Shown: positions 15,515-33,351, numbered from the stretch's first letter. The stretch: 64,000 bases of DNA from Nitrospina sp. LS_NOB (GCA_001542995.1 LFLA01000024.1:68499-132498), one strand, 5' to 3'. A program made the numbers and translations. The notes: generated from the sequence alone by a model not told the origin.

Positions 15515-15748
15515 ATGAATTGGTTGAATGGAAAAAAAACGTATATTATTTCCGCTCTGATGGCCATGGCCTCGCTGGTAAGTTTAGTAACAGGCGATCT
15601 AACACTGCTGGAATTTTTAAATGGCGAGCAGATGATAAACCTGTTCGAGGCCTTAGGGCTCACTACTTTGCGGGCTGGAATCCAGCAAAACCAGAAAGAT
15701 ACAACCCACGAGATCTTAAAAAATATTCACTTTCCCTATGCAGGTTAA
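15515..15748 (+). CDS. Small phage membrane protein (holin-like)
   Basis: 77 aa with GKKTYII..TM..GLTTLRAGI pattern, common among small phage membrane proteins. Confidence 0.6.
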   Translation: MNWLNGKKTYIISALMAMASLVSLVTGDLTLLEFLNGEQMINLFEALGLTTLRAGIQQNQKDTTHEILKNIHFPYAG

Positions 15749-15789
15749 TGACCCGGTCATGAATAGCTCGCTTTTATCAGATCAAACTC

Positions 15790-16143
15790 ATGAGTCTTGA
15801 ATTATTTCGGGCTCTGACGCCCTGGGTCTCGCTCTTACTTTTGCTGGGACTTGGAACTATCGGCTGGTTGATACGTTGGATGTTGGCAGAAAACCTTCGC
15901 CGGTTCCGTGACTTTAAGGAAAACCTCGAAGAGATTGAAACTTCCCTTCGCGATCTTGAGCGGGGGAGACAGGACGATCAAAAATACCTGTTTGAGCAAT
16001 ACGTCGATAAGAAAGCCTTTTATGTTGCTGTCGGGAAAAATGAAGCTTTGATAAGCAGGATATTTAAACAATTAAACGAACTTGCAAAATCAGTAAACCA
16101 GATTGTCGGTGCTTTGAATGCAGGAGAAAATAGAAATGTCTAA
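15790..16143 (+). CDS. Phage membrane/coiled-coil protein (DUF2730-like position)
   Basis: N-terminal TM helix followed by a coiled coil; lies before the terminase genes as in Mu-like phages. Confidence 0.6.
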   Translation: MSLELFRALTPWVSLLLLLGLGTIGWLIRWMLAENLRRFRDFKENLEEIETSLRDLERGRQDDQKYLFEQYVDKKAFYVAVGKNEALISRIFKQLNELAKSVNQIVGALNAGENRNV

Positions 16144-16582
16144 ACCCTTATCTGAAAATTTGGATCGCCTTGATGAATTGCTCTCAGGGCTTGAGGAGCT
16201 AAAAGAAATTGTACGGAATTTGATCCATGATTTTCCTGACGATTTAAAAATTCATCGGGTTTACTGTGCCTATGCAGGAAAAATTTTAGAAACTATTAAG
16301 ACCCGCATTCAGGTTGAAAACATAGATCCAGACTGGCTTCTCTCAGAAGCCTTAAAAACCGTCGCTCTTTTTCTTGCAGAAAATGGAGAGATCAGCGCCG
16401 CAAACCTTGTGGGGAACCACGTAGAAGAAATTGAGGAAAAAGTTAAACAAATATGGTGGCAACCCGAAGAAACAAAAGTATCGAGCCTAAATATAAAACA
16501 GGAACCTTCATTAAAGAGCTCCTCAAACCATTTGGTAAAACCAGCCAAAAGCAGAAAGAAAAACGAAGAACCCGTGCAATAA
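16136..16582 (+). CDS. Putative terminase small subunit
   Basis: Helical protein directly upstream of and overlapping terL; RBS (GGAG) before ATG 16136. Function inferred from position only. Confidence 0.5.
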   Translation: MSKPLSENLDRLDELLSGLEELKEIVRNLIHDFPDDLKIHRVYCAYAGKILETIKTRIQVENIDPDWLLSEALKTVALFLAENGEISAANLVGNHVEEIEEKVKQIWWQPEETKVSSLNIKQEPSLKSSSNHLVKPAKSRKKNEEPVQ

Positions 16583-18045
16583 AAGAACTTAAATATTTTG
16601 CCCAAAAATATTTTCCCCACCATTTGACGGAAAAACCCTCATCCATGCATGAGGACATGTTTTTGCGTTATCAACAACAAATTATTAATTCCGCGTCATC
16701 GGGAAAAGGAGGAAAAGAAGCGCTGGCCGCTCCACGCGGCAACGCCAAATCGACTCTCAGTACGCTTATTTTGCCGCTCTGGTGTATTGCCGGGGCTAGA
16801 AAAAAATTTATCGTTATCATTTCTGATACCACGGAGCAAGCTGAAGAGTTTCTTGATGGCATAAAATCAGAACTGGAAGCTAATAAAAGGTTGATGGAAG
16901 ATTTCCCAGAAGCCTGTGGTCCGGGCCGCACCTGGAAAGCCGCCAAACTCATTACGGAAAATGGTATTGCCGTCCGGTGCTGGGGAAAGCGTAAAAGATT
17001 GCGGGGAGCCAGGCATGGAAACCGTCGGCCCGACCTGGTTATTTGTGACGACCTTGAGGACGATGAGAACATCGATTCTCCCGAACAACGCGAGAAGGAC
17101 CGTAAATGGTTCTTCAAAGCGGTGATGAAGATTGGTGGCCGGTACACGGTTTATATCGTTATCGGCACCCTTCTTCATTACGATTCTCTGCTAGCTCGAT
17201 TATTAAAACGGCCAGGCTGGAACGGCAAAAAATGGCAGGCGGTTATTCGCTGGTCTTCTTCCCAACTTTGGGAAAAGTGGGAAGGGCTTTATACCTCCCG
17301 CTCTCTTGATGCGGAGCAAAAAGCCGAGGAGTTCTTTTGCCAGCATCAAAAAGAAATGTTGCGGGGCACCTCTGTTCTCTGGCCGGAAGTAGAAAACTAT
17401 TATTATCTGATGGCTATGAAGGTTTCAGATGGCCCGGCATTTTTTGACTCTGAAAAACAGAATGAACCGGTGAACCCTGATGACTGTTTGTTTCAGGAAG
17501 AGTGGTTCCGTTTTGCCCCGGAACCCGTGCCTACTCAAAAAGAAACGAGGTTCTACTGTTCCATTGACCCATCCATGGGTTCATCTTCCAACAAGGCCGA
17601 TCCGTCAGCCATTCTTATTGGGGCACTTCAGCCCGATGGAATCATCGATATCATCCAGGCTGACATTCAGAAGCGGCATCCGGATTCCATCATGGAAGCC
17701 CTTTTCGATTATCACCGTCAATACCAGTTTGAAAGGATCGCTATTGAAGAAGTCCAGTTCCAGCAACTGTTTAAGGACCAGGTAATTAAAGAAGGGGCTA
17801 AACGGAAATTGTATCCCCCGGTTGAAGGGGTACGGCCCATCAATGATAAAACTCTGCGGATTTCGAAATTACAACCTCATATTAAAAATGGTCTGATCCG
17901 GTTTCGCAGAAACCAGACGGTTTTTTTGGAGCAATTGAAATATTTTCCCAAAGCCAGTCACGATGACGGGCCTGATGCTCTGGAGATGCTCTTTAATCTT
18001 ATCAACAACGGTTTTAACGGGCCTCGTATCCGTCGAGTCGCCTGA
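16453..18045 (+). CDS. terL: Terminase large subunit (Mu gp28-like)
   Basis: YFAQKYFPH, Walker A APRGNAKST, Walker B RPDLVICDDLEDDEN, nuclease IDPS ... HDDGPDALE. Confidence 0.92.
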   Translation: MVATRRNKSIEPKYKTGTFIKELLKPFGKTSQKQKEKRRTRAIKELKYFAQKYFPHHLTEKPSSMHEDMFLRYQQQIINSASSGKGGKEALAAPRGNAKSTLSTLILPLWCIAGARKKFIVIISDTTEQAEEFLDGIKSELEANKRLMEDFPEACGPGRTWKAAKLITENGIAVRCWGKRKRLRGARHGNRRPDLVICDDLEDDENIDSPEQREKDRKWFFKAVMKIGGRYTVYIVIGTLLHYDSLLARLLKRPGWNGKKWQAVIRWSSSQLWEKWEGLYTSRSLDAEQKAEEFFCQHQKEMLRGTSVLWPEVENYYYLMAMKVSDGPAFFDSEKQNEPVNPDDCLFQEEWFRFAPEPVPTQKETRFYCSIDPSMGSSSNKADPSAILIGALQPDGIIDIIQADIQKRHPDSIMEALFDYHRQYQFERIAIEEVQFQQLFKDQVIKEGAKRKLYPPVEGVRPINDKTLRISKLQPHIKNGLIRFRRNQTVFLEQLKYFPKASHDDGPDALEMLFNLINNGFNGPRIRRVA

Positions 18046-18106
18046 AAAAACAATGGGTATATTTTTATTAATCAAATGTATTTCCTTTTATTAAAGGAGT
18101 TTTCTT

Positions 18107-18373
18107 ATGACCGATCCCTTCAAAAGCTATGAAACGGCTCCTACCAGCCCGGCCCGTAAGGGTTTTTCCATAACGCCTGATGATTCAGTGGATCTTTCGA
18201 TAACCTGCCGGGCTCTGTTTGTGGGTGGAGCAGGGGACATCGCTGTTATTCTTGCCGCTGATTCTTCTTCGATCATGTTTAAAAATATTCCTGCAGGAGT
18301 TGTTTTGCCAATTTCTGTTAAACGGGTGGAGGCGACTCTTACCACAGCAACCGATATTTTGGGGCTTTACTGA
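18107..18373 (+). CDS. Head-spike base protein, RcGTA Rcc01079-like
   Basis: DPF....TSPA..FSITPDDS.DL...RALFVGGAGDIAV....FKNIPAG..LPISVKRV.AT.TTATDILGL matches the Rcc01079 family pattern as recalled. Confidence 0.8.
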   Translation: MTDPFKSYETAPTSPARKGFSITPDDSVDLSITCRALFVGGAGDIAVILAADSSSIMFKNIPAGVVLPISVKRVEATLTTATDILGLY

Positions 18374-19065
18374 TGGAGATTGGGCTAGGAAACAGCCTTG
18401 CGACTGCGCGCGGGATTTCGGGGCCTTCTGGCCTTAACCCAGATTATGTAAAACTGCGACTTCATTTTGATTCTGATTTTTCGGATTCGTCGATTCATGA
18501 CAGGCTGCCGACCCTTATCGGCTCGTCAACAATTGATACGGTAGAAAAGGTGTTTGGCGATGGGTCTATGAAAAATCCGGGCCTTAGCGACATGATATCT
18601 TTCCCGGCCAGTTCTGATTTCAATATGGGTGATTCTATCCCTTTTCAATTGAGCTGGAGGATGCGTAGGACATCTGGGAGTCAAGCGGTATTTTTTGCGG
18701 TGGGTAACTATAACAATGGTTACATACTTGCCTCAAATGGGAATTGGACTGCGGTGGAAATTGGGTCGAACAATGCGGTGCAAGGCTCATGGCCTTATTC
18801 AGTCCTAATTAATACATGGGTCGCTTATAGGTTCAATCACGATGGAGCTAATAATTATAGATGGTATGTAAATGGAGTTTTACTAAGCATTAAAGTAATT
18901 ACTGGAATGGTTGACGCGTCTCTTCCATTTGTAGTAGGTGGGCGGCTCACTAATACGGGTATGGCCGGAAACTTTGATGAAGTTCTTTTTGAAAAACACG
19001 CTGATTTGGTTGTCACGACTGACCTGACTTATGAAGTGGAAACCACAGCATTCCCGGATCCATAA
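18373..19065 (+). CDS. Head-fibre-like protein with LamG/concanavalin-A-like domain
   Basis: Coupled to the spike-base gene; N-terminus MEIGLGNSL; LamG-like ...NTWV...WYVNGVL...VGG...GNFDE signature. Confidence 0.7.
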   Translation: MEIGLGNSLATARGISGPSGLNPDYVKLRLHFDSDFSDSSIHDRLPTLIGSSTIDTVEKVFGDGSMKNPGLSDMISFPASSDFNMGDSIPFQLSWRMRRTSGSQAVFFAVGNYNNGYILASNGNWTAVEIGSNNAVQGSWPYSVLINTWVAYRFNHDGANNYRWYVNGVLLSIKVITGMVDASLPFVVGGRLTNTGMAGNFDEVLFEKHADLVVTTDLTYEVETTAFPDP

Positions 19066-19092
19066 GGTCCTTTTATGTGTTTTTAAATTTTT

Positions 19093-19305
19093 ATGGAGAA
19101 AAATAAATTGAAAACAGGATATCAGAAAACGGTTCTTGAATCATTCGACACCGAAAATGTTTTTAGTGGTTCTTCAGATTCCACACCTCTGGAATACATT
19201 AACGATCCGATTATTGAAAAACTTTTGATACAGCAGGAAAAGATAAACCGGTTTAAAGATATCTGTAACCCAGGTATTTCTTATGGTTTTTATCATAATG
19301 GGTAA
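19093..19305 (+). CDS. Hypothetical protein
   Basis: 70-aa AT-rich ORF within the cluster. Confidence 0.35.
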   Translation: MEKNKLKTGYQKTVLESFDTENVFSGSSDSTPLEYINDPIIEKLLIQQEKINRFKDICNPGISYGFYHNG

Positions 19306-19368
19306 ACTCCATAGGTGTTTCACTATCCAATTCTCGCTGAGTTCCATTAAAAAAATAACAATTAAATT

Positions 19369-20577
19369 ATGAAATTTATCGACTGGTTCAAAAACATCCA
19401 GAAAAAAGAAAGCGCGGTGACCCGGGCTATGACCTTATGGTTGCCAGCAGGGCAGGGGGTCTCCAGCAAAACCGATTATGCTTCTTTGGCAAAAGAAGGG
19501 TTCACCCAGAACAGTGTTGTGTTTTCCTGCGTTAAAGAGATTGCTTCGGCAAGCGCTGGCATTCCCTGGGTTTTATTCAGGCAATTGCCCGATGGGGGAC
19601 GACGGGAGGTGTCTCAGCATCCTCTGCTTGATTTGATTGCCCGGCCTAATCCGCTCCAGGGAAAATATGAACTGATTGAATCCATGGTCTGCCATCTCTA
19701 TCTTTCCGGAAATGCTTATATGGAGTCTGTAGGTCCGCCCAGTGGTGGTCCTTCCGGTTTACCTAAAGAACTTTATGTTCTCAGGCCCGATCGGATGAAA
19801 GTCATTCCCGATGTGGTTCATTATGTCGGTGGTTATGAGTATACGGTATCCGGACAGAAGGTGGAGTTCCCTCGTGAGCAAATATTACATTTGAAACTGT
19901 TTAACCCTCTTGATGACTGGTATGGTTTGTCTCCGGTTCAGGTTGCGGCTTTGGCCATTGACAAACTCAACTCAGGCGATAAATGGAATGCATCGCTGTT
20001 GCAGAACGCGGCGGTTCCTTCCGGAGCATTAACCTGCAAGCAACGCCTGACGGACGATCAGTTTGACCGCTTGAAAACCGAAATGCGACGGCAGATTCAG
20101 GGAGTCAACAATGCCCGCGAACCTCTGCTTCTCGAACAGGATCTTGAATGGAAAGAGTTGGGGATTTCCCCCAAAGATATGGATTGGATTGAAGGTCTGA
20201 AAATGAGCGCTCTCCAGGTGGCGCAGGTGTTCAATGTTCCTCCGGAGTTGGTGGGGCTGGGTCCGGCCACGTACCAGAACCGCAAGGAAGCGCGCAAGGC
20301 TTTATATACCGAAGTGGTTTGCCCATTTCTCAACCGGCTTCGCGATGGTTTTAATAATTGGCTGGTTCCGCGATTCGGCGAAAATCTGATTTTGGACTAC
20401 GACAAGGACGGTATTGAGGCTTTGTCGGAAGACCAGGAAGCGTTGTGGAACCGGGTTAATCAAAGCGAATTTTTAACGGTAAACGAAAAACGCCGCATGG
20501 TTGGATTCGATGATGTGGCCGACGGGGATAAGATTTTGCTTAACCACCGTCCAAATTCAAGGAGTGAATCATCATGA
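19369..20577 (+). CDS. Phage portal protein, HK97 family (RcGTA-like)
   Basis: HPLLDLIARPNP, LSGNAY, ELYVLRPDRM, DDWYGLSP, PSGAL and FNVPPEL motifs. Confidence 0.95.
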   Translation: MKFIDWFKNIQKKESAVTRAMTLWLPAGQGVSSKTDYASLAKEGFTQNSVVFSCVKEIASASAGIPWVLFRQLPDGGRREVSQHPLLDLIARPNPLQGKYELIESMVCHLYLSGNAYMESVGPPSGGPSGLPKELYVLRPDRMKVIPDVVHYVGGYEYTVSGQKVEFPREQILHLKLFNPLDDWYGLSPVQVAALAIDKLNSGDKWNASLLQNAAVPSGALTCKQRLTDDQFDRLKTEMRRQIQGVNNAREPLLLEQDLEWKELGISPKDMDWIEGLKMSALQVAQVFNVPPELVGLGPATYQNRKEARKALYTEVVCPFLNRLRDGFNNWLVPRFGENLILDYDKDGIEALSEDQEALWNRVNQSEFLTVNEKRRMVGFDDVADGDKILLNHRPNSRSESS

Positions 20578-21266
20578 AAGAAATTAAATCGTTTCCTTTT
20601 AAGCTGGATGCGCTGAATGATGCCGGAGAGTTTTCCGGCTATGCTTCCACTTTTGGGTCTGTCGACCTGGGCGGGGATGTGGTGGAAAAGGGAGCTTATA
20701 AAAAAACCCTGAAGGAAAGCCAGGGGCGCATCCCTATTCTTGACCATCATGACCCCACTCGGCAGATTGGCTGGAACGTTCAGGCGCATGAAGACGAGCG
20801 TGGTTTGTTCGTGCGCGGACTGCTTGATCTCAATGTCAGTGCGGCACGGGAACGCCATAGCCTCATGAAAATGGCACAGAGCATCGGCGGACGCACAGGG
20901 CTTTCTATCGGATTTAGAACGATCAAGGAGGAACCGGACCGGAAGCGCCCCGACATTCGCCGGTTGAAGGAAATCCAGCTCATGGAATACAGCGTTGTCA
21001 CGTTCCCCATGAACCCGCAGGCGGGAGTGCTCAGCGTAAAAGCGAAAGAACAATTGATTGGCCAGTTTTTGCAAAATGCCGTGGGGTTGGACAAACGACA
21101 AACCCAACTGGCAATCATTAATTTTAAATCACTCCTTTCTAAAAGCAACGAGCCGGGTTTTGCCCACTCGGGTAGATTGAAAATGGGAGCCGATATCCCG
21201 GACTGGGAGCCGTTACGGCTGTCCCTGTGCCGACTTTTAAGCTCTGTAAAGGGAGCCCTGAACTAA
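20574..21266 (+). CDS. HK97-family prohead protease
   Basis: FSGYASTFG..DLGGDVVEKGAY, HHD..IG, GLSIGF and EYSVVTFPMNP motifs. Confidence 0.95.
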   Translation: MKEIKSFPFKLDALNDAGEFSGYASTFGSVDLGGDVVEKGAYKKTLKESQGRIPILDHHDPTRQIGWNVQAHEDERGLFVRGLLDLNVSAARERHSLMKMAQSIGGRTGLSIGFRTIKEEPDRKRPDIRRLKEIQLMEYSVVTFPMNPQAGVLSVKAKEQLIGQFLQNAVGLDKRQTQLAIINFKSLLSKSNEPGFAHSGRLKMGADIPDWEPLRLSLCRLLSSVKGALN

Positions 21267-21369
21267 CCTCGAATTTCTAATTTTAGACCTTCCTCGGGCC
21301 AATTTATACCGTGTTTGTTCCCTATTATATAAGGTCTTCTCGTAAGGGGCCGGGTGAGGGTTTTTTTTA

Positions 21370-22581
21370 TTGAAGGAGATTGAAATGGAAGAGATTAAAC
21401 AGCTTGTTGAGGAACTCAATCAGGCATTTATAGAACATAAGGTAAAAAACGATCAGCGCTTGAACGAAATCCAGAAAAAGGGTTATGCCGATCCTGTTCT
21501 TGAGGAGCAGGTTGATCGTGTGGCGAAAGAGATCCAAAAGCTGGCTGAGGTTAAGGAACGACTTGAGCGGGTAGAAACCAAGCTAGAGCGCCCGATTCTG
21601 GGCAAGCACGAAAGCGATAAGACGGAGCCCTTTTCCAGCGAAAGAAAAGAAGCCGTGATTCATTACCTCAGAAAGGGAGAAGGGTTTTTGACCCCACAGG
21701 AAATCAAACTTCTCGCCACCGACAGCGATCCGGATGGCGGGTATTGGATGACTTCGGAAATATCTCAACAGGCCATTCAAAAGGTTTATGAAACTTCACC
21801 CATGCGCAATATTGCTACGGTTGAGACCATCTCAACCGATGCTCTGGAAATTCCTGAAGACCTTAACGAAGCTGATAGTGGATGGGCTTCGGAACGGTCT
21901 GCCCGCCCTGAAACCAGTACTCCGCAGATTGGCGTACGGAGAATTCCTGTGCATGAGCTTTACGCAATGCCGAAAGCGACACAGACCTTACTGGATGATT
22001 CACGTATTGATGTCGAGTCCTGGTTGTCGGTAAAAATTGCCGACAAGATGGTGCGCATCGAAAACTCCGCCTTCATCAATGGGGATGGTGTCGGAAAACC
22101 GCGCGGCATATTGACTTATTTGCCAGGCACTACCAATCCCGGCCAGGTGCAACAGGTCAATTCCGGAAATGCCAGCTCTTTGACCGCTGATGGCCTGCGC
22201 TCGTTATTTTACACTTTGAAGGGTTCATATATTCCCAATGCCCGGTGGTTGATGTCACGAAGTGCTATTGAAGAAGTTTCCAAGCTGAAAGACTCTGCCG
22301 GTTCTTACATCTGGCAACCGGGGTTTCAGGAGGGAGAACCGCAAACCTTGCTGGGTCATCCGATTGAGCGCATGGAAGATATGCCGCAAGTGGCAGCTAA
22401 TTCCATGTCTGTAGCGTTTGGGGATTTCAGGCAGGCTTATACCATTGTTGACCGGATGGGATTGAGGGTTCTTCGCGATCCTTTCAGCTCCAAACCTTTC
22501 GTGCTGTTTTATACCACGAAGCGCACTGGTGGTGATGTGGCTAACTTTGAAGCCTTCGCCATCCAGAAAACAGCCGCATAA
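21370..22581 (+). CDS. Major capsid protein, HK97 fold (RcGTA g5-like)
   Basis: DGGYW, HELYAMPKATQTLLDDS, AFINGDGVGKPRGIL, AFGDFRQAYTIVDR and LRDPFSSKPFVLFYTTKRTGG motifs. Confidence 0.97.
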   Translation: MKEIEMEEIKQLVEELNQAFIEHKVKNDQRLNEIQKKGYADPVLEEQVDRVAKEIQKLAEVKERLERVETKLERPILGKHESDKTEPFSSERKEAVIHYLRKGEGFLTPQEIKLLATDSDPDGGYWMTSEISQQAIQKVYETSPMRNIATVETISTDALEIPEDLNEADSGWASERSARPETSTPQIGVRRIPVHELYAMPKATQTLLDDSRIDVESWLSVKIADKMVRIENSAFINGDGVGKPRGILTYLPGTTNPGQVQQVNSGNASSLTADGLRSLFYTLKGSYIPNARWLMSRSAIEEVSKLKDSAGSYIWQPGFQEGEPQTLLGHPIERMEDMPQVAANSMSVAFGDFRQAYTIVDRMGLRVLRDPFSSKPFVLFYTTKRTGGDVANFEAFAIQKTAA

Positions 22582-22729: not shown

Positions 22730-23107
22730 ATGAAAGATCTCAAAAACCATATAGACGCGGTCAACTCCATTAATCCGGATGATTACACCGCAACTATTAA
22801 CGGACTGGGCATTGACCTTCAGGGCTTCGAAGGTTCTGCCGTTGTTTTCAGTGTCGGCACGGTTACGGACGGAACCCATACCCCGAAGATTGAAGAGTCG
22901 GATGATAATTCTAACTGGATGGATGTAGCCTCGATCGACCAGGAGGGACTGTTGTCCGATTTAGCTTCTGACACCAATCAACGTGTAGGATATAAAGGCA
23001 CGAAGCGTTATCTACGTGCGGTATTGACCGTTTCCGGCGCTACCATTGGGGCCCAGGCCGCCAGTCTGGTGCTGAGAGGAATCCCGCATCGGGCACCTGT
23101 CAACTAA
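22730..23107 (+). CDS. Phage protein following the capsid gene (possible decoration/cement protein)
   Basis: beta-rich 125-aa ORF with GIDL..G...ESDD..W..VGYKG.KRYLR pattern. Confidence 0.65.
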   Translation: MKDLKNHIDAVNSINPDDYTATINGLGIDLQGFEGSAVVFSVGTVTDGTHTPKIEESDDNSNWMDVASIDQEGLLSDLASDTNQRVGYKGTKRYLRAVLTVSGATIGAQAASLVLRGIPHRAPVN

Positions 23108-25056: not shown

Positions 25057-26100
25057 ATGACGACGAAACGTATCACTACAGGATGGCGTGGATTTTCCAC
25101 TGCCAAAGAAGTTAGCTACGGAACCCCGACAGGAATTTCCACCGCTTTCAATTTTGAAGGCCCCATCACCGATGTGCAACCGAATGAGGTTCAGACGGAT
25201 GAAAACGAGACCACCGGACTCAATGAGCCGTCGATTCAGGAAGTTTTGAACTGGAAACTGGATGGCACCCATCAACAGCGTGCCATGCCACATAACATGG
25301 CTTATTTTCTCGCACTGGTTATGGGAAAAGTAACCACCGACCAGCCGGATGATGTCAACGATCCCACTGTTTATCGGCATTTCATGGAGCGCGACCTGGC
25401 CAATATTACCCTGCCCTCTGTGACCTTGGTGGAATATGACGGAATCGCCAACAAGCGTTTTACCGGATTGTTCGGCAAATCCGTCAAAATCAGCGGGTCG
25501 AGGGGCGACTTTGTCAAACTTGAGGCGCAGTTTGGCGGCATGGGCAAAGAAGAACCCAATGCCGACTCCAAACCCACCGTGATTGGGGAATCTTATTTAA
25601 GATATGGGGACGTCAATTTCAATCGAGGCGGTTCTCTTTCAGGCTCGGTTGCGGGAGGAGATCTTGCGGTTGTTGGTTCGCCGACATCATTCAAAGCAGA
25701 TTTGCTTTCCTTTGACTGGACAATGGATAACCAAGTAAAAACCTTTTACGAAATGGGCGACAGTTCCGGATATGTAACGAGAGCAGAACGCGGCGACCGG
25801 TTCCAGCAAACTTTAAACGCGACTCTGGAAATGCAGGACGATAGCCACAAGTCCGGGCTGGTCAACGGTACCGAATATGTGTTTCACATTCCCGTTACCG
25901 GAGCGGTGATCGCAGGGGGATCCGGTTCGTTCAATTATTCCTGTGATCTTATTTTTCCCAAGGTTGTTTATAAAGAAGCCAAAAAGGATCGGGATGGAGA
26001 AGTGCTGACGGTGAACGCCGAGTTTCAGGTGCTGGAAGACACGACCTACGGGTCGGTGATCGTAAAAGTAATCAATGAGCAAACAGGGTACTTGCTTTGA
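25057..26100 (+). CDS. Major tail tube protein
   Basis: 347 aa; KEVSYGTP N-terminus, beta-rich, immediately before the chaperone genes. Confidence 0.75.
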   Translation: MTTKRITTGWRGFSTAKEVSYGTPTGISTAFNFEGPITDVQPNEVQTDENETTGLNEPSIQEVLNWKLDGTHQQRAMPHNMAYFLALVMGKVTTDQPDDVNDPTVYRHFMERDLANITLPSVTLVEYDGIANKRFTGLFGKSVKISGSRGDFVKLEAQFGGMGKEEPNADSKPTVIGESYLRYGDVNFNRGGSLSGSVAGGDLAVVGSPTSFKADLLSFDWTMDNQVKTFYEMGDSSGYVTRAERGDRFQQTLNATLEMQDDSHKSGLVNGTEYVFHIPVTGAVIAGGSGSFNYSCDLIFPKVVYKEAKKDRDGEVLTVNAEFQVLEDTTYGSVIVKVINEQTGYLL

Positions 26101-26184
26101 TTCAGCATTTACTAATTGTCACCCTGGGTTTATCGAAGGGTACATCCTTCGACAGACTCTGGATGACCCAAAATGGAGGTTTGA

Positions 26185-26574
26185 ATGGCAATCAATATAA
26201 ATCCGGGAGTTATAAAAGTTGAAATTCCTTATTGCGGGGCGACCGTTGTTCTGGTTTTGCGGGATTATACGACCGAAGAGTATTGCCAGTTCCAGAAAAA
26301 CCGGTTTAAGTTTGTTTCTCCCGGCAATGTCGATGACCACTCCTCGCAGGCGCGCATCGAGTTCATCGAAACAATTTTAATGGATATAAAAGTTAAAACC
26401 AAAGAGGGCGAAGAAGAGGTTGTTTTTACCGACCCTGCTACAGGCGAGGAAAAACCTTTGACTCCTTCGATTCCAAACTGGAAAAAGTATGTCCAGGCCT
26501 CATTCAAATGCGCCGCGGCCATGGTGTTTGAGGGAACCTCCGCCAACTTGGAACACGCCACGCTAAAAAACTGA
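26185..26574 (+). CDS. Tail assembly chaperone (gpG-like)
   Basis: Lies between the tube and tape-measure genes; ends in the slippery heptamer A-AAA-AAC just before TGA. Confidence 0.75.
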   Translation: MAININPGVIKVEIPYCGATVVLVLRDYTTEEYCQFQKNRFKFVSPGNVDDHSSQARIEFIETILMDIKVKTKEGEEEVVFTDPATGEEKPLTPSIPNWKKYVQASFKCAAAMVFEGTSANLEHATLKN

Positions 26575-26894
26575 TCACCTACTTCCAGGACGATGTGCCG
26601 GGACTGGAAGTAGAGTACCAGAATTTTCTAAAACGGGTTCACGAGGAAACGGATGACCCGCAATGGAATATCGAAAATCACCCGGCACGAAAAATTCTCA
26701 ACCGCTACTCTGAAGGGTTCGGCAAATGGGTGGGGTATCTGGAAAACCTTCTGTTGTTAAAAAAGGGTGGCTATCCTTTTGAGAAGAATGATCTGGGTAT
26801 TACTGAATGGAAAGCCCTGGCCCTGCTGGAACTCCTCGGCGGAGGGCCAATGAACAACCGGTCAGCGACCGGTGACGATAAATTGTACAAATAG
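26565..26894 (+). CDS. gpGT-like extension reached by -1 frameshift
   Basis: The -1 frame from 26565 reads K-K-L-I-T-Y-F-Q-D-D straight into the ORF 26595-26894. Confidence 0.7.
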   Translation, partial: KKLITYFQDDVPGLEVEYQNFLKRVHEETDDPQWNIENHPARKILNRYSEGFGKWVGYLENLLLLKKGGYPFEKNDLGITEWKALALLELLGGGPMNNRSATGDDKLYK

Positions 26895-27187
26895 ATAGCT
26901 TCCTCCTGATAAGGGGGATTTCAATGGACCCCTCTTTCTTAAAGTACCCGTGCCGGGCACGAGGGCTTTGGAACAATATCACGAGGGGCTGGGGTGATTT
27001 ACCCTCCTCCTTGACGGGCCTCCTCTTTCTCTTTCACCTTAAGGGTGAGAGGGAAGGGGGGATTACCTTCTTATCACTGATTTCTTTTCCGCATTCTTGG
27101 CAGGGGATCAGAGCCATGGCTGTTTCTCCATATTGGTTTACGGGTTTTAGCATAGCTGATTAACAGTTTTAACGAATCTCTTTTTCA

Positions 27188-27300
27188 GGAATTTAATTAT
27201 GGCCAGTCCAGTTAACGTAAGCGCAAAAATAACAGTTGGGTTTGAAGATCAGTTCAGCGGGCAAGCCTGTCAGGCATTTGAAACCTGTGCATGTCTATAG
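27188..27300 (+). pseudogene. Duplicated 5' end of the tape-measure gene (33-codon stub)
   Basis: 27188-27283 closely matches 27661-27756 (MASPVNVSAKITVGFEDQFSG/AQACQAFE), then stops at 27298-27300. Confidence 0.8.
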
Positions 27301-27319
27301 GAAATAGGGGCAGGATGAA

Positions 27320-27541
27320 CTATAAGCCGAATATGCGAGTTCCCACCCAATAAAGTCCTAAGGCGGAAACAAAAGAGATGGATAAAAAGATAATTAATGA
27401 AGATAATACTTTTAGAATCTTTTCTGACCCGGTCATTTCAGAAAAACTTTTTTTTATGCGAATAGGTACGCCGCAATGCGGACAGGTTGATGCCTTGTCG
27501 CTGATTTGTTTGTCACATTCCGGACAGGGGAACAGGGCCAT
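27320..27541 (-). CDS. Double zinc-ribbon membrane protein (moron-like)
   Basis: CPEC...CPHC plus a C-terminal TM helix; AT-rich and antisense to the cluster. Confidence 0.75.
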   Translation of the reverse strand: MALFPCPECDKQISDKASTCPHCGVPIRIKKSFSEMTGSEKILKVLSSLIIFLSISFVSALGLYWVGTRIFGL

Positions 27542-27671
27542 TTGTTAGAACCTTCTTTCAGGTGCGGAAGAGTATTTTAGCGGTAACATTTATTGCTTCT
27601 TTATAAATCAAGTGCAGTTATTCTAACATTAAATTTGCTATAGCAATTTTATTCTTTAAGGGAATTTAAAT

Positions 27672-28790
27672 ATGGCCAGTCCGGTTAATGTAAGTGCAAA
27701 AATAACAGTCGGGTTTGAAGACCAGTTCAGCGCGCAAGCCTGTCAGGCATTTGAAATCGTAAAAAAATGCGCTGAGGACGCCTTTCAAGTAATGGACTCG
27801 TTCCCCAAAGCATTGGCACCCGGTGGTTTTCAGGATGATGTTGAATTATTTTCGCAATCGGTGGAAAAACTCGAGAGTTCCATAAACCGCATGAATGAGA
27901 GCCTGATAAAGTCACAGGAAGAGGCCACCCGGTTTGGTGAGTCTTTGGAAAACCCCAGCAAGTTTGTGGCTGACTTTTGGGAAAGCTTGAAACAAGGGAA
28001 TACTTTTGCGGTCACTACCGCCATAGCTGGCTTGACTGTTGGGTTAGCTGGCTTAGCAACATTAAACGCTCCATTAGCTGGACTTGGTGCGGTTATTTTA
28101 GGTGTAGGTTTAAACGCTGCATTTTTGGCGTCACTTTTGAATGATGTCGAGGAATCACTGAAAGCGTTGGAGGCTCAAAAACTAATTGAACCTAAAATCA
28201 CCGAAGATTCGATCTTTCAACTGGAAAGATTTTCTTCTGCGCTTGAGCCGTTAAGAAATCCGCCGGACTTCCAGCTCAAAGTTGATTTGCTGGATAACGC
28301 CACGGGAAGTGGCGCAAAAATTCGCCAGCAACTGGAAGAAATGTTTAAGTCTCCCATCACCCAGACGATCGTCACCGAACGTGTGGATGCTGTTTTAAAT
28401 TTTTCAAAATCGCCTGGGCGGTCCTCGTCCGATCCATTCAACTCCTTTTTTGATGATGGATTGCCGGAATTTCTGACATCGAGCCCGGACCTGACTGGGT
28501 TTAACAAGTCGGTGGGATTCTCCCCGGCTAAACCCGCTCTTCCCAGTTTTGCCAGCGGCATCGACCGGGTTCCACGGGACATGCCGGCCCTTATCCATAA
28601 GGATGAAGCGGTTCTCCCCAAAACCCAGGCAGAAGATTTTCGCCGTGGCGGCTCCAGCGGGATGAGCATTGAAAACCTTAATTTCAGCTTCAATGTCGCC
28701 AACGGCGCCAAGCTCGACCGGGAGGAGTTTCGCAATATGGCTTTTATGATGCGTGATGAACTCAAACGCCTCGACCGCCGAATCGATTAG
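27672..28790 (+). CDS. Short tape measure-like protein
   Basis: Helical N-half with a hydrophobic A/G/L-rich stretch; C-terminal FASGIDRVPRDMPALIHKDEAVLP motif typical of tape-measure C-termini. Confidence 0.8.
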   Translation: MASPVNVSAKITVGFEDQFSAQACQAFEIVKKCAEDAFQVMDSFPKALAPGGFQDDVELFSQSVEKLESSINRMNESLIKSQEEATRFGESLENPSKFVADFWESLKQGNTFAVTTAIAGLTVGLAGLATLNAPLAGLGAVILGVGLNAAFLASLLNDVEESLKALEAQKLIEPKITEDSIFQLERFSSALEPLRNPPDFQLKVDLLDNATGSGAKIRQQLEEMFKSPITQTIVTERVDAVLNFSKSPGRSSSDPFNSFFDDGLPEFLTSSPDLTGFNKSVGFSPAKPALPSFASGIDRVPRDMPALIHKDEAVLPKTQAEDFRRGGSSGMSIENLNFSFNVANGAKLDREEFRNMAFMMRDELKRLDRRID

Positions 28791-28998: not shown

Positions 28999-29379
28999 AT
29001 GAGTTTTGGTTTTTATTATCCGACAAAGTCCGCACCGACGGCGCAATGGGTGCCTGTTACACAGCCGGAGTACCCGGCGGGGGAGGTCCTGGATTATCCT
29101 GAACAGATCAATTCGGTCACTGCCGGTGGCACGCTTTATGTGCAGGAGAAGGGTGGCCAGCGCCAGACCTTTCAGTTTAATTTTTCCCGAATCAACCAAG
29201 CTGACCGAGACAGCGCCCAAACCTTTTTTGATACCGTTAAAAAATCATTCAAGACCTTTGAATTGGAGGACCAGAATGCAACCCTGCACACCGTACGGTG
29301 GATGAACGGATTAAATTTTCAGCTGGTCCTCTTTGGCAAATATTCCGGGACTATTGATCTCAGGAAAGAACCGGCGTAG
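28999..29379 (+). CDS. Distal tail (Dit-like) protein
   Basis: Follows the tape measure; TAGG..YVQ......F.F...FFDTV...F pattern. Confidence 0.6.
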   Translation: MSFGFYYPTKSAPTAQWVPVTQPEYPAGEVLDYPEQINSVTAGGTLYVQEKGGQRQTFQFNFSRINQADRDSAQTFFDTVKKSFKTFELEDQNATLHTVRWMNGLNFQLVLFGKYSGTIDLRKEPA

Positions 29380-29537: not shown

Positions 29538-29855
29538 ATGATTGATTGGAGCCAGTGCCGGCCTGAGGATTTCAACCTTGTGGTGGATGGCGAGGAAATT
29601 CAGCAGGTGGGGCAGACACAATTGTTCCCGATCCGGGTCTTTTATAAAGGGGATACTTTTGTTTTCCGGAAATCGGTTCCCCTTCGAGCTGAATTTTATG
29701 CCCAGTTGAGAGAGAGGGAGGATTGGAAAGAACGGTTGATGGAAATTCTGAAAAATCGGGTGCGGGGGGAGATTGATGAAAGGATTCACTCAAGCCAGAT
29801 AGGCATTGACGACAAACTGGAGTTGATGGCTATGAGCAAGGACCCGATTGGATGA
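29538..29855 (+). CDS. Hypothetical protein
   Basis: 105-aa ORF with an AGGAG RBS; no family recognised. Confidence 0.65.
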   Translation: MIDWSQCRPEDFNLVVDGEEIQQVGQTQLFPIRVFYKGDTFVFRKSVPLRAEFYAQLREREDWKERLMEILKNRVRGEIDERIHSSQIGIDDKLELMAMSKDPIG

Positions 29856-29935: not shown

Positions 29936-32827
29936 ATGCGAACCGATTTTACATCCGGATTTAACACTTCGAGAAATAGCAAGACCAATGCGCCGGTCAA
30001 TTTATTACAAATTGACTGGCCTGCCATGAATGGTTTGCCGGCGTTAACGTTAAGGCTGACCGATCGGGAAGGGATCACGATCAACTCTCTTTATTGGTAT
30101 CCGCTGGTGAATGATATGGGAAACCTTGACCGACTGGTATCTCCCGATCAAACCGATAGCAATTCTTACCCCAACCTCACGGTGAACGTGGTGAATGCGC
30201 CGGTGGACTTGTTCAGTCCGGTGGCCCGATTCTCAAACTTGTTTCGCCATCGTCCCCCTGAATCGGCTGTGGTGACTCTTTACCAGTGGTTTGCGGGTGA
30301 CGGGCTGACCGATGCGGATCTTGGCGTCCTTTTTATTGCTCGCATTGGAGACCCGATCCAATATGACGAGGCGATTTGTATTTTTGACCTGGTGGATATA
30401 TCTCAGGGCTATGGTGCCACAGTGATCGGCAATACTCTTACCCTTGCTGATTACCCTAATGCTCCCGAACAATCGGTTGGAAAAATCAGGCCCATCGTTA
30501 TTGGAAATGTCGATGAAGCTCCCGGGACTTTGGTACGGAAATCACAACAAACCCAATTAACTTCGGTGGCGATTCCTGGTGGGACGTTGCTGGATGTTTC
30601 TTCCACCGCTAATTTTCCGGCGTCCGGGACGGTTATCGTCAATGATGATGAAATCAGTTTCACCAGTTTGAACTCCACTCAGTTTTTGGGCTGTTCCGGG
30701 ATCAACGAATTTCATTATAGCGGTGACGCGGTTCTCGAGAAGGTGACAGACCATCGTTATTTGTTCAGCGATCCCGATTATCCTATTAAGGGTATTACTA
30801 ATATCAGGGTTGGGGGCCACCTGGCCGATTCCGGAGAATTTTTGGTAGATGTTGCTGAAGGGGAAGTGGTATTTTCTTCCAAGCCTAAAAAATCTGATTC
30901 CATCGATACCAAATTCTTACAGGCGCAGAACGATGTAGTGGGCGCGGGGAATACTGCTATCAATCCCACCAATGCCAACATTCCCAATAGTCCTACCACT
31001 TACGCTAAAATTAACCAGAGCACCAATGTTCTATCGTTACGGCAAACCGATTCCCTGGCTAATATTGGAACCATTGGTAAAGTACTTTTGCGGGTCGAGC
31101 ATTTTGTTGAGGAGAAACTTCCTAATGACAGTATGACGGCCCATGTTACCGGTGTGGGCCAAGTCGGCGTCTTATCTGCCCCGGCTGTGGACGATGTGGT
31201 GGTCTCAAGCGGGACGACGGATATCACTCATACGCATTTGGATTCGTTTGGGTTTCCCATCAGCGATCCACAACATCAGCATACCGAAGCCCTTCCTCCA
31301 AAGATAACGCAAAGTGCTCTATCCGGGATCGGCGGGCTGACGATCAGCTTAGGGAGCGGACAACAACATATTATTACTTTTCCCGATCCGGGTCCGGGCA
31401 CTTGGGCAACGGGGGAGTATGGAATTGGATTTGAATGGACCGGTACGATTTCTGGTCCGAGCACGGTGGATGTCTATGCGAAAAACAGTGGCGGAAGTCC
31501 TTCTGATGACTACAGAGTGTGGAGACGGCAAGGAACGACGCAGACCTACACCACAGGCGGCAACATCAATACGGACACGAACTCCATTCGTCTCACTCAC
31601 AACGCGACACTTATTACTTTTAAGGTGACTTTTGCCACGCGGGTCGTGACCATGAATGCACCGTTAAGCGTGAGTACGCAAGGGACCAATGTTTCCACCT
31701 CAAAAACGGGTTCCTTAACTCAACATTCTTCCAGCCCGGCGATTAATTCCACGGCTGAAAAAGCCACTCGCAGTGTTGTTGATTTTTTTGATATCACCAG
31801 CCATGTGAACGGGGACTGGAACTGGTTCACCAACCGGGAATCCCAAATTCAATACAATGGTTCCAGTGATGGCCGCACGGCCTTTATCGTTCACCTTGCT
31901 TATGAAATTGAGTATGCCCGGAGGCGAATCCAGTTCACCGATGAGGTCAGCGCTGATATCCAGGGTGTGAAGGATGATTCCAGTGGAACCCTGACCGGGA
32001 TTGCCGACTCCCTTGTTGAAAGACCGGATCATGTTTACAAATGGTCAATTCTCAAAGCGTTAAATTTTGGCAGTTCGGTCCTGGACTCTGCGTCTCTGGA
32101 TCAGGCCGGAGGTTTGTTTTCCAGTTATTATCTGGCCGGGATAATAGTCAATAAGGTTTCAGCCCGCGAACTCTGGAATCAATGGGGCAAGGAAAGCCGT
32201 TCTTTTTTTTATTGGGATTTGGGATTGGCAAAAATTCTGTTTCGTCCATTAAACCTTGTGAACACCAGCACCATCGCGGATAAAATCATTTTGGACAATA
32301 TGGTTTTGTTGGATTCTAAAAACCAGGTTCGGTTTAAATCCACGCGTAATCCTATTGAGGATGTGGTGAATAAAATCGATCTGAGATATCGCAAAAACTG
32401 GTCCGGTGAGGGCTATAAATCGGTGGAAAGCGCCAATGATGTTGAATCGATCAATCAGTTTGGGCAAAAGGAAAAGCCGGCTGATTTTGAGTTCAATTGG
32501 ATTCGGACCGAGGTCCTTGCGGCGGATCTGGCTTTATTTTATTTGCAGGAACGCGGGTTTCCCCGGGATGTTTATGAGATTGAATTGCTGCTGGATAATA
32601 TGGAGATTGAGCGGGGCGATATTCTTGAAGTCAACCCTCCCACGCATGAATTGAAAAATGTCAAAGTCATGGTTTTAGGTGCCGGTAGGTCTATTGGCTC
32701 GGGAATCGCCCAACGTATGGATACGGTTCCTGTAATTGCCCGGCAAATGCGCGGACTTGTCGGCAATGCGGGATTTGGGCTGCAGGGTTTTGGGGACTCG
32801 GGTTTTGGCGGCGCGGAAATAAATTAA
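29936..32827 (+). CDS. Baseplate hub/tail-tip protein with internal variable region
   Basis: 963 aa; hub-like N-part (RPIVIGNV), T/S/G-rich internal region, C-terminal INQFG..EF.WIR...A..LA...L tail motif. Confidence 0.75.
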   Translation: MRTDFTSGFNTSRNSKTNAPVNLLQIDWPAMNGLPALTLRLTDREGITINSLYWYPLVNDMGNLDRLVSPDQTDSNSYPNLTVNVVNAPVDLFSPVARFSNLFRHRPPESAVVTLYQWFAGDGLTDADLGVLFIARIGDPIQYDEAICIFDLVDISQGYGATVIGNTLTLADYPNAPEQSVGKIRPIVIGNVDEAPGTLVRKSQQTQLTSVAIPGGTLLDVSSTANFPASGTVIVNDDEISFTSLNSTQFLGCSGINEFHYSGDAVLEKVTDHRYLFSDPDYPIKGITNIRVGGHLADSGEFLVDVAEGEVVFSSKPKKSDSIDTKFLQAQNDVVGAGNTAINPTNANIPNSPTTYAKINQSTNVLSLRQTDSLANIGTIGKVLLRVEHFVEEKLPNDSMTAHVTGVGQVGVLSAPAVDDVVVSSGTTDITHTHLDSFGFPISDPQHQHTEALPPKITQSALSGIGGLTISLGSGQQHIITFPDPGPGTWATGEYGIGFEWTGTISGPSTVDVYAKNSGGSPSDDYRVWRRQGTTQTYTTGGNINTDTNSIRLTHNATLITFKVTFATRVVTMNAPLSVSTQGTNVSTSKTGSLTQHSSSPAINSTAEKATRSVVDFFDITSHVNGDWNWFTNRESQIQYNGSSDGRTAFIVHLAYEIEYARRRIQFTDEVSADIQGVKDDSSGTLTGIADSLVERPDHVYKWSILKALNFGSSVLDSASLDQAGGLFSSYYLAGIIVNKVSARELWNQWGKESRSFFYWDLGLAKILFRPLNLVNTSTIADKIILDNMVLLDSKNQVRFKSTRNPIEDVVNKIDLRYRKNWSGEGYKSVESANDVESINQFGQKEKPADFEFNWIRTEVLAADLALFYLQERGFPRDVYEIELLLDNMEIERGDILEVNPPTHELKNVKVMVLGAGRSIGSGIAQRMDTVPVIARQMRGLVGNAGFGLQGFGDSGFGGAEIN

Positions 32828-32874
32828 AGAATTTTGATTCATACCGGCCGGGGGTTCGGCCTTGGATTTAAATT

Positions 32875-33351
32875 TTGGAAAGGAGTTTTATGGCTAATAC
32901 TTTTACAATGAACCTGAATCTTGCAATTCCCTCCGCCGGAGATTTAAATTGGGAAAATGAGTATTCCGACTTTTCCGAGGCGGTGGATGATCTTGGGAAT
33001 TTGTTTTGTTTTACCGTTCCCGTTCTCGATTCGGCTGCCAATGGAATGGTATTTTTTGATGGATTTATTCCAGCGGAAAATATTACGGTAAAGGCTATAG
33101 GCCTTTTTGCGCAAATCGCTCCCACCGGCCAGGATATGAAGGTCGATGTTTTGAAAAATGGAACGGCCCAGACCAACCCCGGAACCTTAACGGACGGAAG
33201 CCAGTTTGGGAAAACGGTTTTAGGTTCTTCAATTGGGTTTTTGGTGTCCGACCGGCTGGGTTTAAAATTTACTCAAGTCGGATCGGTTGTCGCAGGGGAT
33301 AAGATTGTGGTGACCATTTATTACCAGAAAGAAGCAATACCCGGCCCTTAA
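32875..33351 (+). CDS. Putative tail-associated structural protein
   Basis: 158-aa beta-rich last gene of the cluster (APTGQD..VDVLKNG..DRLG). Confidence 0.6.
   Translation: MERSFMANTFTMNLNLAIPSAGDLNWENEYSDFSEAVDDLGNLFCFTVPVLDSAANGMVFFDGFIPAENITVKAIGLFAQIAPTGQDMKVDVLKNGTAQTNPGTLTDGSQFGKTVLGSSIGFLVSDRLGLKFTQVGSVVAGDKIVVTIYYQKEAIPGP

Follow-up and report, generated by a model that had tools for sequence, protein, structure and literature searches.

The DNA analysed here is a stretch of 64,000 nucleotides from Nitrospina sp. LS_NOB (GCA_001542995.1, LFLA01000024.1:68499-132498), referred to below as the window, in which positions are counted from the first letter. It contains a cluster of phage head and tail genes at 15515-33351, which is 17.8 kb long and comprises 23 open reading frames (ORFs) in one co-directional run on the plus strand plus 1 antisense ORF, every one of them open. 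Judged from sequence, the locus is probably an ancient phage-derived one that was domesticated by its host, is kept at the chromosomal origin in Nitrospinota and makes phage-like particles, and it is most likely a system resembling the gene transfer agents (GTAs), a reading held with moderate confidence. Domestication by the host is strongly supported, and GTA function, that is, packaging and transfer of host DNA, is plausible by analogy with known agents such as RcGTA of Rhodobacter capsulatus. An initial annotation of the window had proposed a single intact, co-directional head-tail operon; the 23 open ORFs were confirmed and the core genes identified, and only the ORF at 27320-27541 departs from this description in being antisense. 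The features of the locus are given below by coordinates and strand, with family matches and their E values in brackets (aa, amino acids; HTH, helix-turn-helix).

8324-10744, minus: gyrA, left of the cluster
10816-13416, minus: gyrB, left of the cluster
13676-15037, minus: dnaA, directly left of the cluster
15395-15458, plus: leader with two hairpins, 5' of the first cluster gene
15515-15748, plus: c01, small membrane protein of 77 aa with a hydrophobic N-terminal segment, in first position in 18 loci
15790-16143, plus: c02, 117 aa, an N-terminal transmembrane segment and then a coiled coil
16118-16582, plus: c03, putative small terminase of 154 aa, by position only (directly 5' of the large terminase gene and overlapping it)
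16453-18045, plus: large terminase, TerL (phrog_38, 3.9e-115; TIGR01630, 8.7e-23)
18107-18373, plus: c05, head-spike base of 88 aa, RcGTA Rcc01079 (GhsA) family (NF048002, 2.3e-29; phrog_12296, 4.8e-23)
18373-19065, plus: c06, variable putative spike fibre or receptor-binding protein of 230 aa, following the spike-base gene (phrog_3545, 7.7e-12)
19093-19305, plus: c07, small ORF of 70 aa in the variable TerL-portal slot
19369-20577, plus: portal (PF04860, 8.4e-83; best PDB match, RcGTA portal Rcc01684, 1.3e-78)
20574-21266, plus: prohead serine protease S78 (PF04586, 2.9e-24; phrog_80, 4.9e-46)
21370-22581, plus: HK97-fold major capsid with N-terminal delta domain (PF05065, 5.5e-82; TIGR01554, 1.9e-111)
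22730-23107, plus: c11, conserved head-associated protein of 125 aa (phrog_5707, 3.3e-26)
23165-23374, plus: c12, small protein of 69 aa, conserved in most loci (phrog_2616, 2e-6)
23387-23989, plus: head-tail adaptor (PF05135, 6.8e-8; TIGR02215, 3.9e-29)
23959-24462, plus: c14, Neck1/tail completion (phrog_5, 1.1e-7)
24494-24970, plus: c15, 158 aa
25057-26100, plus: double-domain tail tube of 347 aa (PF18906, 3.4e-11)
26185-26574 and 26595-26894, plus: tail assembly chaperone pair c17/c18, with c18 in the -1 frame relative to c17
27199-27300, plus: remnant of a tape-measure 5' end, 33 codons, translation running into a stop
27320-27541, minus (antisense): c19, Zn-ribbon membrane protein, a moron (PF13248, PF13240)
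27672-28790, plus: tape measure of 372 aa, by position, with a central hydrophobic segment (weakly phrog_1204)
28999-29379, plus: c21, 126 aa, Dit/gpM-like by position
29538-29855, plus: c22, 105 aa
29936-32827, plus: baseplate hub/Tal of 963 aa, by Foldseek search of an AlphaFold (AF2) model
32875-33351, plus: c24, conserved distal protein of 158 aa with homologues in 13 loci of both clades
33434-34324, minus: CI/LexA-type repressor of 296 aa, with two HTH regions and an S24 autopeptidase domain
34343-34371, plus: early promoter TTGACA-17-TATATT, facing away from the repressor gene, 19 bases from the repressor start codon
34353-34366: operator O1, perfect palindrome AGGACAAATGTCCT, in the early-promoter spacer
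34385-34398: operator O2, a related site about 20 nt downstream of O1
34858-35292, plus: d26, putative early regulator of 144 aa with a Cys/His zinc-type motif (three Cys and one His invariant)
35285-35629, plus: d27, putative early regulator of 114 aa with a C-terminal sigma region-4-like HTH (phrog_3512 'sigma factor', 2.3e-4)

The GC skew of the window changes sign at about 13-14 kb (flip at about 13.5 kb), and etfBA, rsmG and parAB lie to the right of the cluster; this flip, together with the gyrA-gyrB-dnaA and rsmG-parAB context, identifies the window as the origin region of a bacterial chromosome. No cluster of DnaA boxes was found in the dnaA-c01 spacer when scored with the E. coli consensus, and the origin was therefore placed only by GC skew and gene context. 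Because the repressor, the operator-bearing promoter and d26/d27 are located directly downstream of the cluster, the functional unit extends from about 15.4 kb to about 35.6 kb (15395-35629, about 20 kb) and includes a phage-type switch. Capsid homologues grade from 96% down to 63% identity, and nearly all of the named ones are from Nitrospinota (Nitrospina spp., N. watsonii, Candidatus (Ca.) Nitrohelix vancouverensis and Ca. Nitronauta litoralis); the host is a marine nitrite oxidiser of that phylum.

Comparative loci were collected by scanning one genome per GTDB species, which gave 28 Nitrospinota loci; individual loci are cited by number (L001 and so on) where they have to be told apart. 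The cluster was located directly beside dnaA-gyrB-gyrA, in the same orientation, in about 20 Nitrospinota loci in which the contig reached far enough, and likewise in Ca. Nitrohelix and Ca. Nitronauta. For N. watsonii, whose chromosome record ends with the cluster and whose fetched locus contains no dnaA, adjacency across the record start was assumed. The genomes sharing this site span 62-93% DnaA identity. Co-divergence was assessed in 21 genomes with DnaA as the only host marker, rather than a multi-gene species tree: the p-distances of DnaA and of TerL+portal+capsid were correlated (Mantel r = 0.975, slope 1.08; none of 2000 permutations gave so high a value), and the neighbour-joining trees of the two sets had 15 of 18 splits in common.

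Ratios of nonsynonymous to synonymous substitution rates (dN/dS), calculated by the Nei-Gojobori method (NG86), were 0.03-0.3 for nearly all cluster genes and 0.03-0.11 for dnaA and gyrB. Core genes were intact and open in nearly all of about 30 genomes, with a few truncated genes in single metagenome-assembled genomes (MAGs). The dN/dS outliers were the capsid compared with L014 and c24 compared with L012; since the matched stretches of both loci contain an in-frame stop, these values probably reflect frameshift or assembly error and not relaxed selection. By composition the cluster was indistinguishable from the host genes in the window, with GC of 0.479 versus 0.478, GC at third codon positions (GC3) of 0.510 versus 0.514, and a correlation of relative synonymous codon usage of r = 0.92, compared with 0.90 for one half of the host genes against the other. 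Inside the cluster, the TerL-portal gap of some lineages contains genes of host type, among them those for cytochromes c and a PDZ protein.

These results show long-term maintenance of the cluster by the host. The viriform definition of GTAs by Kogay et al. 2022 (PMC9662315) was used as the reference, and three of the features that it names were found here: a full head-tail gene set, derived from a caudoviricete and located on the chromosome (between dnaA and rsmG-parAB), vertical transmission in concert with the host genome, and structural genes under purifying selection. The definition further names particles with mostly random host DNA, in pieces smaller than the encoding locus, and DNA delivery to recipient cells, both of which are predictions for this locus, and production under host regulatory control. 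The initial annotation had held that the cluster is maintained by its host and is not a conventional prophage, and had proposed as checks the same dnaA-adjacent locus in relatives, gene trees congruent with that of the host and dN/dS below 1. All of these were borne out by the phylum-wide site, the co-divergence with DnaA and the dN/dS values, and the host-like composition agrees with them. As a separate observation, dS relative to L001, the closest genome, was low (0.04-0.15) from c02 through the capsid gene (15790-22581) compared with 0.33-0.48 in the flanking dnaA/gyrB and 0.34-0.43 in c15-c17, a pattern suggesting that lineages have recently exchanged part of the cluster by homologous recombination.

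Scans of the cluster, of the regulators and of those larger flanking ORFs in the window that were examined gave no match to an integrase, excisionase, replication gene, sheath or endolysin/lysis-enzyme domain, where absence refers to detectable homologues only; no att-like direct repeat was found flanking the element. To the extent of these window scans, the original statement that such features are missing in and around the cluster stands, and on detectable homologues the locus also agrees with the part of the GTA definition that excludes integration, excision and replication functions. Precomputed Pfam annotation likewise gave none of the gene types sought in the window within +/-10 kb of the cluster in N. 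watsonii, Nitrohelix and Nitronauta, relatives in which an integrase had been named in advance as a finding that would count against a GTA. Of the features that define an intact prophage, an immunity repressor with a divergent early promoter is present (33434-34324 and 34343-34398); an integrase or att sites at the borders, and a replication module with a lysis enzyme, were not found. In IMG/VR, eleven contigs matched the capsid at >=68% identity, all of them fragments of the cluster itself, 4-9.5 kb in length; the best match after these was at <=54%, and no close free phage was found. Since these fragments are catalogued as viruses, the locus could be mistaken for free phages in catalogue-based surveys. 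The capsids of deposited phages reached at most 45% identity over full length, or 57% over 71% of the length.

The head genes are those most closely related to RcGTA. The Walker A, Walker B and nuclease motifs of TerL (dN/dS 0.03-0.10) are kept in 23 of 23 genomes with conservative variants only, and the portal gene is intact in all 30 loci in which it is not cut by a contig end. It had been claimed that portal and capsid are close to those of RcGTA, and RcGTA proteins are indeed their best solved relatives: the best PDB match of the capsid is Rcc01687 (5e-74; 42% identity over 352 residues). The sole PDB profile match of the adaptor is the RcGTA adaptor Rcc01688 (E = 0.034), and c05 scored 101.5 bits against NCBIfam NF048002 (cut-off 28). 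The putative small terminase c03 has no family match, and its core (residues 18-113) is conserved phylum-wide. The c11 protein was also found in alphaproteobacterial relatives, and a strong terminator-like hairpin (23112-23145; 13 pairs and then a T-run) is located 3' of its gene. At the start of the cluster, c01 has no family match and is possibly holin-like; c02 is intact in 22 of 22 loci, and 100% identical in L001 (dN/dS 0.00-0.07), and as small membrane proteins the two could be holin- or spanin-like.

The candidate spike fibre c06 is 41-91% identical to its relatives, compared with 85-98% for neighbouring genes. Homologues of c07, which has no family match, were found at 54-72% identity in eight loci of the window's clade (L002-L006, L013 and L014 among them). 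The junction between TerL and portal that holds these genes is an insertion hot spot, with a gap of 43 bp to 6.8 kb among lineages (window 18046-19368; L027:1416-8223; L025:1-8121; L058:3360-4886). Depending on the lineage it contains spike genes, a SocA/Panacea-domain protein, cytochromes c, a PDZ protein or a 740-aa protein with a dCTP-deaminase domain, the last being possibly an anti-phage defence gene.

In the tail, the AF2 model of the tube (pLDDT 88.6) matched the P74-26 tube in a Foldseek search (9.5e-15, TM 0.71) and also T5 pb6, and the tube family comprises 101 members in 5.8 billion proteins, those carrying a source name all being from Nitrospinota. A canonical -1 slippery heptamer, A_AAA_AAC, is located at 26565-26571, just 5' of the c17 stop; A_AAA_AAC or A_AAA_AAT ends the c17 homologue in 15 of the 15 examined loci with a near-full-length c17, and synonymous sites around the heptamer vary. 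For the 963-aa hub, no sequence match was found in Pfam, PHROGs or PDB. Its AlphaFold model, built with 49 homologues (pLDDT 83), had T5 pb3 (1.1e-13) and lambda gpJ (1.9e-12) as top Foldseek matches, and it also matched the hubs of DT57C and T1 and, more weakly, the RcGTA hub (7e-6) and megatron (2e-5). The hub family has 100 members, and all source-named ones are from Nitrospinota except one partial protein from a MAG labelled Desulfuromonadales.

The tape measure is a divergent allele, 46% identical to that of L001 (dS 1.29) where neighbouring genes are about 95% identical (dS about 0.3). The remnant of a tape-measure 5' end sits upstream of the antisense Zn-ribbon gene c19 and is marked by a 96-nt direct repeat (27188-27283 and 27661-27756, 93% identical). 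The c14 and c15 genes are confined to tube-bearing lineages, whereas c21 and c22 are conserved in all lineages, including those without a tube; c21 and c22 gave no family or PDB sequence match, PDB profile searches with c21 and the hub were likewise empty, and c24 gave no family match. Of the tail proteins named in the initial annotation, the 372-aa tape measure was retained on position and the weak phrog_1204 match and the hub on its fold, and the Dit assignment is one by position.

The neck-tube-chaperone-tape-measure segment, c14-c20, is absent from a monophyletic clade that includes N. watsonii, Nitrospina sp. 32_T5 and Ca. Nitronauta (L018, L019, L022, L024, L027, L058 (N. watsonii) and L062 (Ca. 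Nitronauta); compare 23959-28790 in the window). In these loci the adaptor is followed directly by c21-c22-hub and then by tail-fibre genes. No tube homologue was found in the clade by iterative hidden Markov model (HMM) search of the loci, and none from its genomes appeared in the word-seeded protein database search that returned the 101 members of the tube family. The genes downstream of the hub were considered as candidate tubes and rejected, being tail fibres. Rearrangements of gene order within the tail module were also seen in L007, L015, L017 and Nitrohelix: chaperones and tape measure have moved either into the TerL-portal interval or to a place preceding the adaptor and tube (L007:2635-7873; L015:6974-7618; L017:7192-7896; L060:12492-17164). 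Such reordering is unusual for phage structural operons.

The initial annotation had placed no early or life-cycle genes beside the cluster. This is wrong, because a repressor switch and early regulators flank it directly downstream: the CI/LexA-type repressor at 33434-34324, the operator-bearing promoter and d26/d27. The repressor, an HTH_XRE + Peptidase_S24 protein, matched PF00717 (4.3e-17), PF01381 (4.9e-11) and phrog_4 (2.3e-36), and its AAG (Ala-Gly) cleavage site, the catalytic serine of SMEP and the catalytic lysine of TAK are invariant in 9 genomes. Of the 20 kb scanned for sigma-70 promoters, the early promoter, a strong one divergent from the repressor gene, gave the best match (11 of 12 positions). 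Its layout with two operators is kept in 8 other genomes of both major clades, and the consensus at both operator sites is GGGACA-N2-TGTCCC (GGACANNTGTCC core). Downstream of the repressor, d26 is present in 8 other loci and d27 in 3, and PDB sequence and profile searches with both were empty. Control seems to be exerted by a locus-encoded LexA/CI-type repressor that is conserved with the cluster, and its wiring to host RecA or other host signals is an inferred one. In Ca. Nitronauta a response-regulator receiver gene adjoins the repressor gene (L062:19233-19637).

The operator GGACANNTGTCC was not found upstream of c01, which leaves direct repression of the late operon unsupported; nor was a good sigma-70 promoter found there on the plus strand. 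The leader at this position folds into two hairpins with a z score of -3.8: hairpin 1 at 15395-15416, with loop TTTGCGCACT, and hairpin 2 at 15427-15458, with a stem of 13-14 bp. Hairpin 2 was found in 14 of 19 loci from both major clades, and its arms vary in sequence yet remain complementary. This was determined from per-sequence folds, which were used in place of RNAalifold on a MAFFT alignment of the leaders, in which the stems were misaligned and only 5 pairs were recovered. An Rfam scan gave no family for the leader, its sole matches being signal recognition particle (SRP) RNA and tRNAs. The position of the hairpins suggests an attenuator or antitermination target, and they may act as RNA or as DNA.

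Elsewhere in the window, a bacterial small SRP RNA is encoded at 1566-1663, and five tRNA genes (four Ser, one Arg) at 1780-6025 are followed by serS at 6190-7473. A low-GC island at 2513-3821 (GC 0.29-0.38, GC3 0.20-0.30), with three small minus-strand ORFs among the tRNA-Ser/tRNA-Arg genes, was probably inserted recently. Three small ORFs of 117, 130 and 105 aa (35942-37019), located between the regulators and etfB, gave no family match and no tblastn match in the fetched loci reaching that far downstream; they are lineage-specific cargo.

Taken together, the locus encodes all that is needed for a DNA-filled tailed particle: a head of HK97/RcGTA type, a terminase with intact ATPase and nuclease motifs, and a T5/P74-26-type, non-contractile tail whose chaperones are frameshifted, whose tape measure has 372 aa and whose hub is of pb3/J type. 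The proposed course of events is as follows. DNA damage, through activated RecA (RecA*), would lead to self-cleavage of the repressor and derepression of the early promoter. This would allow expression of d26, with its zinc-type motif, and d27, with its sigma region-4-like domain, which may then switch on the late operon c01-c24 or antiterminate through the hairpin leader. By analogy with GTAs, heads would be filled with host chromosomal DNA by headful packaging, cells would be lysed by functions encoded outside the cluster, and the variable spike or fibre proteins (c06) would bind related cells, to which the DNA would be delivered.

Several points weigh against a GTA-like system. The particles are predicted here from genes, and head capacity cannot be read from a capsid sequence; intact genes under purifying selection would be expected as well if the particles had other uses, such as PBSX-like killing or altruistic lysis. 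RcGTA is controlled through host regulators, whereas this element has a phage-type repressor switch of its own, and the roles given above to d26, d27 and the leader hairpins, none of which has a homologue of known function, are guesses. No lysis enzyme was found in the cluster and no repressor operator upstream of c01. Finally, since the tube, chaperone and tape-measure module is absent from the Nitrospina/Nitronauta clade, delivery of DNA through a long tail cannot be the conserved function there.

The alternative that survives best, possible but unlikely in our view, is a domesticated particle system selected for a use other than transfer, in which packaged host DNA would be incidental; such uses would include PBSX-like SOS-induced killing or kin competition, stress-triggered lysis and exclusion of related phages. 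An SOS-type repressor with a small sigma-like regulator resembles the Xre/Xpf logic of PBSX, allele replacement as seen in c06 and the tape measure is typical of surface-recognition arms races, and one clade without tube and tape measure yet keeps heads, hub and fibres. However, terminase, portal and capsid are conserved as strongly as DnaA with catalytic motifs intact, which suggests that DNA packaging itself is under selection; known tail-only killers (tailocins) have lost their heads, and the tail here is non-contractile.

A further proposal, which we consider doubtful, is SOS-triggered, origin-anchored DNA export. Packaging would proceed from the cluster with the replication fork into the right replichore, so that the locus would serve as a lateral transducer built into the chromosome, and, as part of the same joint claim, the particle of the Nitrospina/Nitronauta clade would have been remodelled to a tube-less form with hub and fibres docking close to the head. 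If true, this would be a particle form and a host-controlled mode of gene export not described for any GTA. Slightly less probable still is a pac-type element with selfish packaging, a fixed lateral-transduction engine in which processive headful packaging would start inside the cluster and proceed in the direction of replication. Particles would in that case contain a strong excess of the cluster and of the right replichore next to it, as opposed to random packaging. In favour of this reading are the retention of a separate, conserved putative small terminase and the fixed position of the cluster at the origin, which is shared, together with its orientation, by all genomes examined. On the other side, no pac site was identified and no in situ replication genes are present, and the reading, compatible with all sequence data, is indicated by no specific result.

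Prophage explanations fare worst. An ordinary temperate prophage, intact or recently defective and integrating next to dnaA, would account for the phage gene order, the CI-type repressor, the divergent early promoter and the fragments catalogued as viral contigs in IMG/VR. It is nonetheless very improbable, given an element of about 20 kb (15395-35629) in which neither att repeats nor genes for integrase, excisionase, replication or a lysis enzyme were found, the same site in about 20 genomes at 62-93% DnaA identity with tree congruence, host-like composition, and host genes inside the cluster in some lineages. A decaying remnant without function, to which the small tape-measure 5' remnant, the antisense insertion and the few truncated genes in single MAGs might point, is the least credible of all in view of dN/dS of 0.03-0.3, ORFs intact phylum-wide, catalytic motifs kept with conservative variants only and a conserved programmed frameshift signal. 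Site, co-divergence, dN/dS, composition, the missing integrase, replication and att features and the lack of a close free phage thus effectively exclude a recent, ordinary or decaying prophage, and a host-domesticated, GTA-like particle system remains the preferred reading.

To our knowledge, little is known about gene exchange in Nitrospinota. Full-text literature searches found no description of a GTA or of a conserved prophage-like cluster in the phylum, in keeping with the earlier suggestion of a lineage outside Alphaproteobacteria with no described GTA. Roux et al. 2015 merely list Nitrospinae among the phyla with a first detected virus, and the Nitrohelix/Nitronauta genome paper mentions phage-related unique genes, not this locus. 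In the ocean, Nitrospinota are the principal nitrite oxidisers known (PMC8026999), and the recognised GTA families are the alphaproteobacterial types I and II and a spirochaete type (PMC9662315). If the particles carry host DNA, the locus would represent a GTA lineage that is new, was domesticated independently, belongs to a phylum distant from Alphaproteobacteria and is old enough to span that phylum. Features that bear on general questions about GTAs are the simple, conserved LexA/CI-type switch, the fixed position at the origin and the rapidly exchanged spike and tape-measure alleles. The phylum also offers a natural experiment, as the clade with cultured Nitrospina strains has lost the tail tube and the clade with the Ca. 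Nitrohelix enrichment has kept it.

Among known systems, HK97-like temperate siphophages resemble the locus in gene order and have a head module homologous to its own. The capsid of Azospirillum phage Cd, for example, is 57% identical over 71% of the length, and that of Caudoviricetes sp. MW202897 45% over full length. These records are 40-62 kb, about twice the size of the element described here, which in contrast has no integration, replication or lysis-enzyme genes and is fixed in a host lineage. The tails of T5 and P74-26 are similar in the double-domain fold of the tube, and the hub resembles pb3; sequence identity is only 8-14%, and the head lineage differs.

PBSX of Bacillus subtilis is similar by analogy only, as a chromosomally fixed defective phage in which an SOS-responsive repressor is divergent from early genes with a sigma-like activator. 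It has an Xre-type repressor, the small sigma-like activator Xpf and particles that package host DNA; with a contractile tail and its own lysis genes, it kills cells without DNA transfer. There is no sequence relationship between the two, the portal_PBSX model matching at 9.6e-5, far below the cut-off. BaGTA of Bartonella (Bartogtaviriformidae) is also a domesticated particle system linked to a replication origin and is coupled to run-off replication (PMC9662315). The Bartonella origin is phage-derived, whereas the position here is that of the host origin region next to dnaA. No homology between the two systems was seen, though no search aimed at it was made.

RcGTA (Rhodogtaviriformidae) is a further close comparison. 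Both are head-tail clusters that lack integration and replication genes, are vertically transmitted and are under purifying selection, and their heads are homologous. RcGTA provides the top PDB match for capsid (42%) and portal, the adaptor belongs to TIGR02215 with Rcc01688 as sole PDB profile match, and the spike base is of the Rcc01079 family; the hub resembles the RcGTA hub and megatron at fold level only. Homologues of the RcGTA head proteins g3 (portal), g4 (protease), g5 (capsid) and g6 (adaptor) are present. Of the RcGTA-type HMMs, TIGR02215 and NF048002 were matched, whereas GTA_megatron stayed far below its cut-off (E = 0.006, 14 bits, cut-off 800) and no GTA_TIM/megatron match was above threshold. 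None of the g7-g15 families sought in Pfam/NCBIfam (Phage_HCP, gp17 tail completion, small tube, DUF2460, DUF2163/BR0599, megatron) was matched. The neck, tube, chaperones, tape measure, Dit and hub have no sequence relation to those of RcGTA. The tube of RcGTA is small and single-domain, and the one here is a 347-aa double-domain protein of P74-26/T5 type. RcGTA is controlled by the host regulators CtrA and GafA and by quorum sensing, and the 17.8-kb cluster here, fixed at oriC, carries a CI/LexA-type switch of its own. The host phylum is Nitrospinota, outside the Alphaproteobacteria of RcGTA-like elements (Rhodobacterales for the named family). The RcGTA likeness originally proposed thus holds for spike base, portal, protease, capsid and adaptor and fails for the tail and the regulation.

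The nearest loci outside Nitrospinota are in alphaproteobacterial and Rickettsiales MAGs, with capsid identity of about 49%. In two of them (L029 and L030, about 4000-15100), terminase, portal, protease, capsid, Phage_connect_1, Phage_HCP and gp17-type tail completion genes are syntenic; portal and protease are separated by cytochrome b561 and YceI genes, and tail genes do not follow in line. We take the Phage_connect_1, Phage_HCP and gp17-type families to be those of RcGTA g6-g8. Descent of the Nitrospinota cluster from an alphaproteobacterial GTA was considered and rejected as the simplest reading: common descent from a GTA is not indicated, because true phages have equally or more similar capsids, and the lineage is regarded as independent because only the head is RcGTA-like and the tail and regulation differ. 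The element lies outside the RcGTA family, and the best account of it is that a phage whose head lineage is related was domesticated independently.

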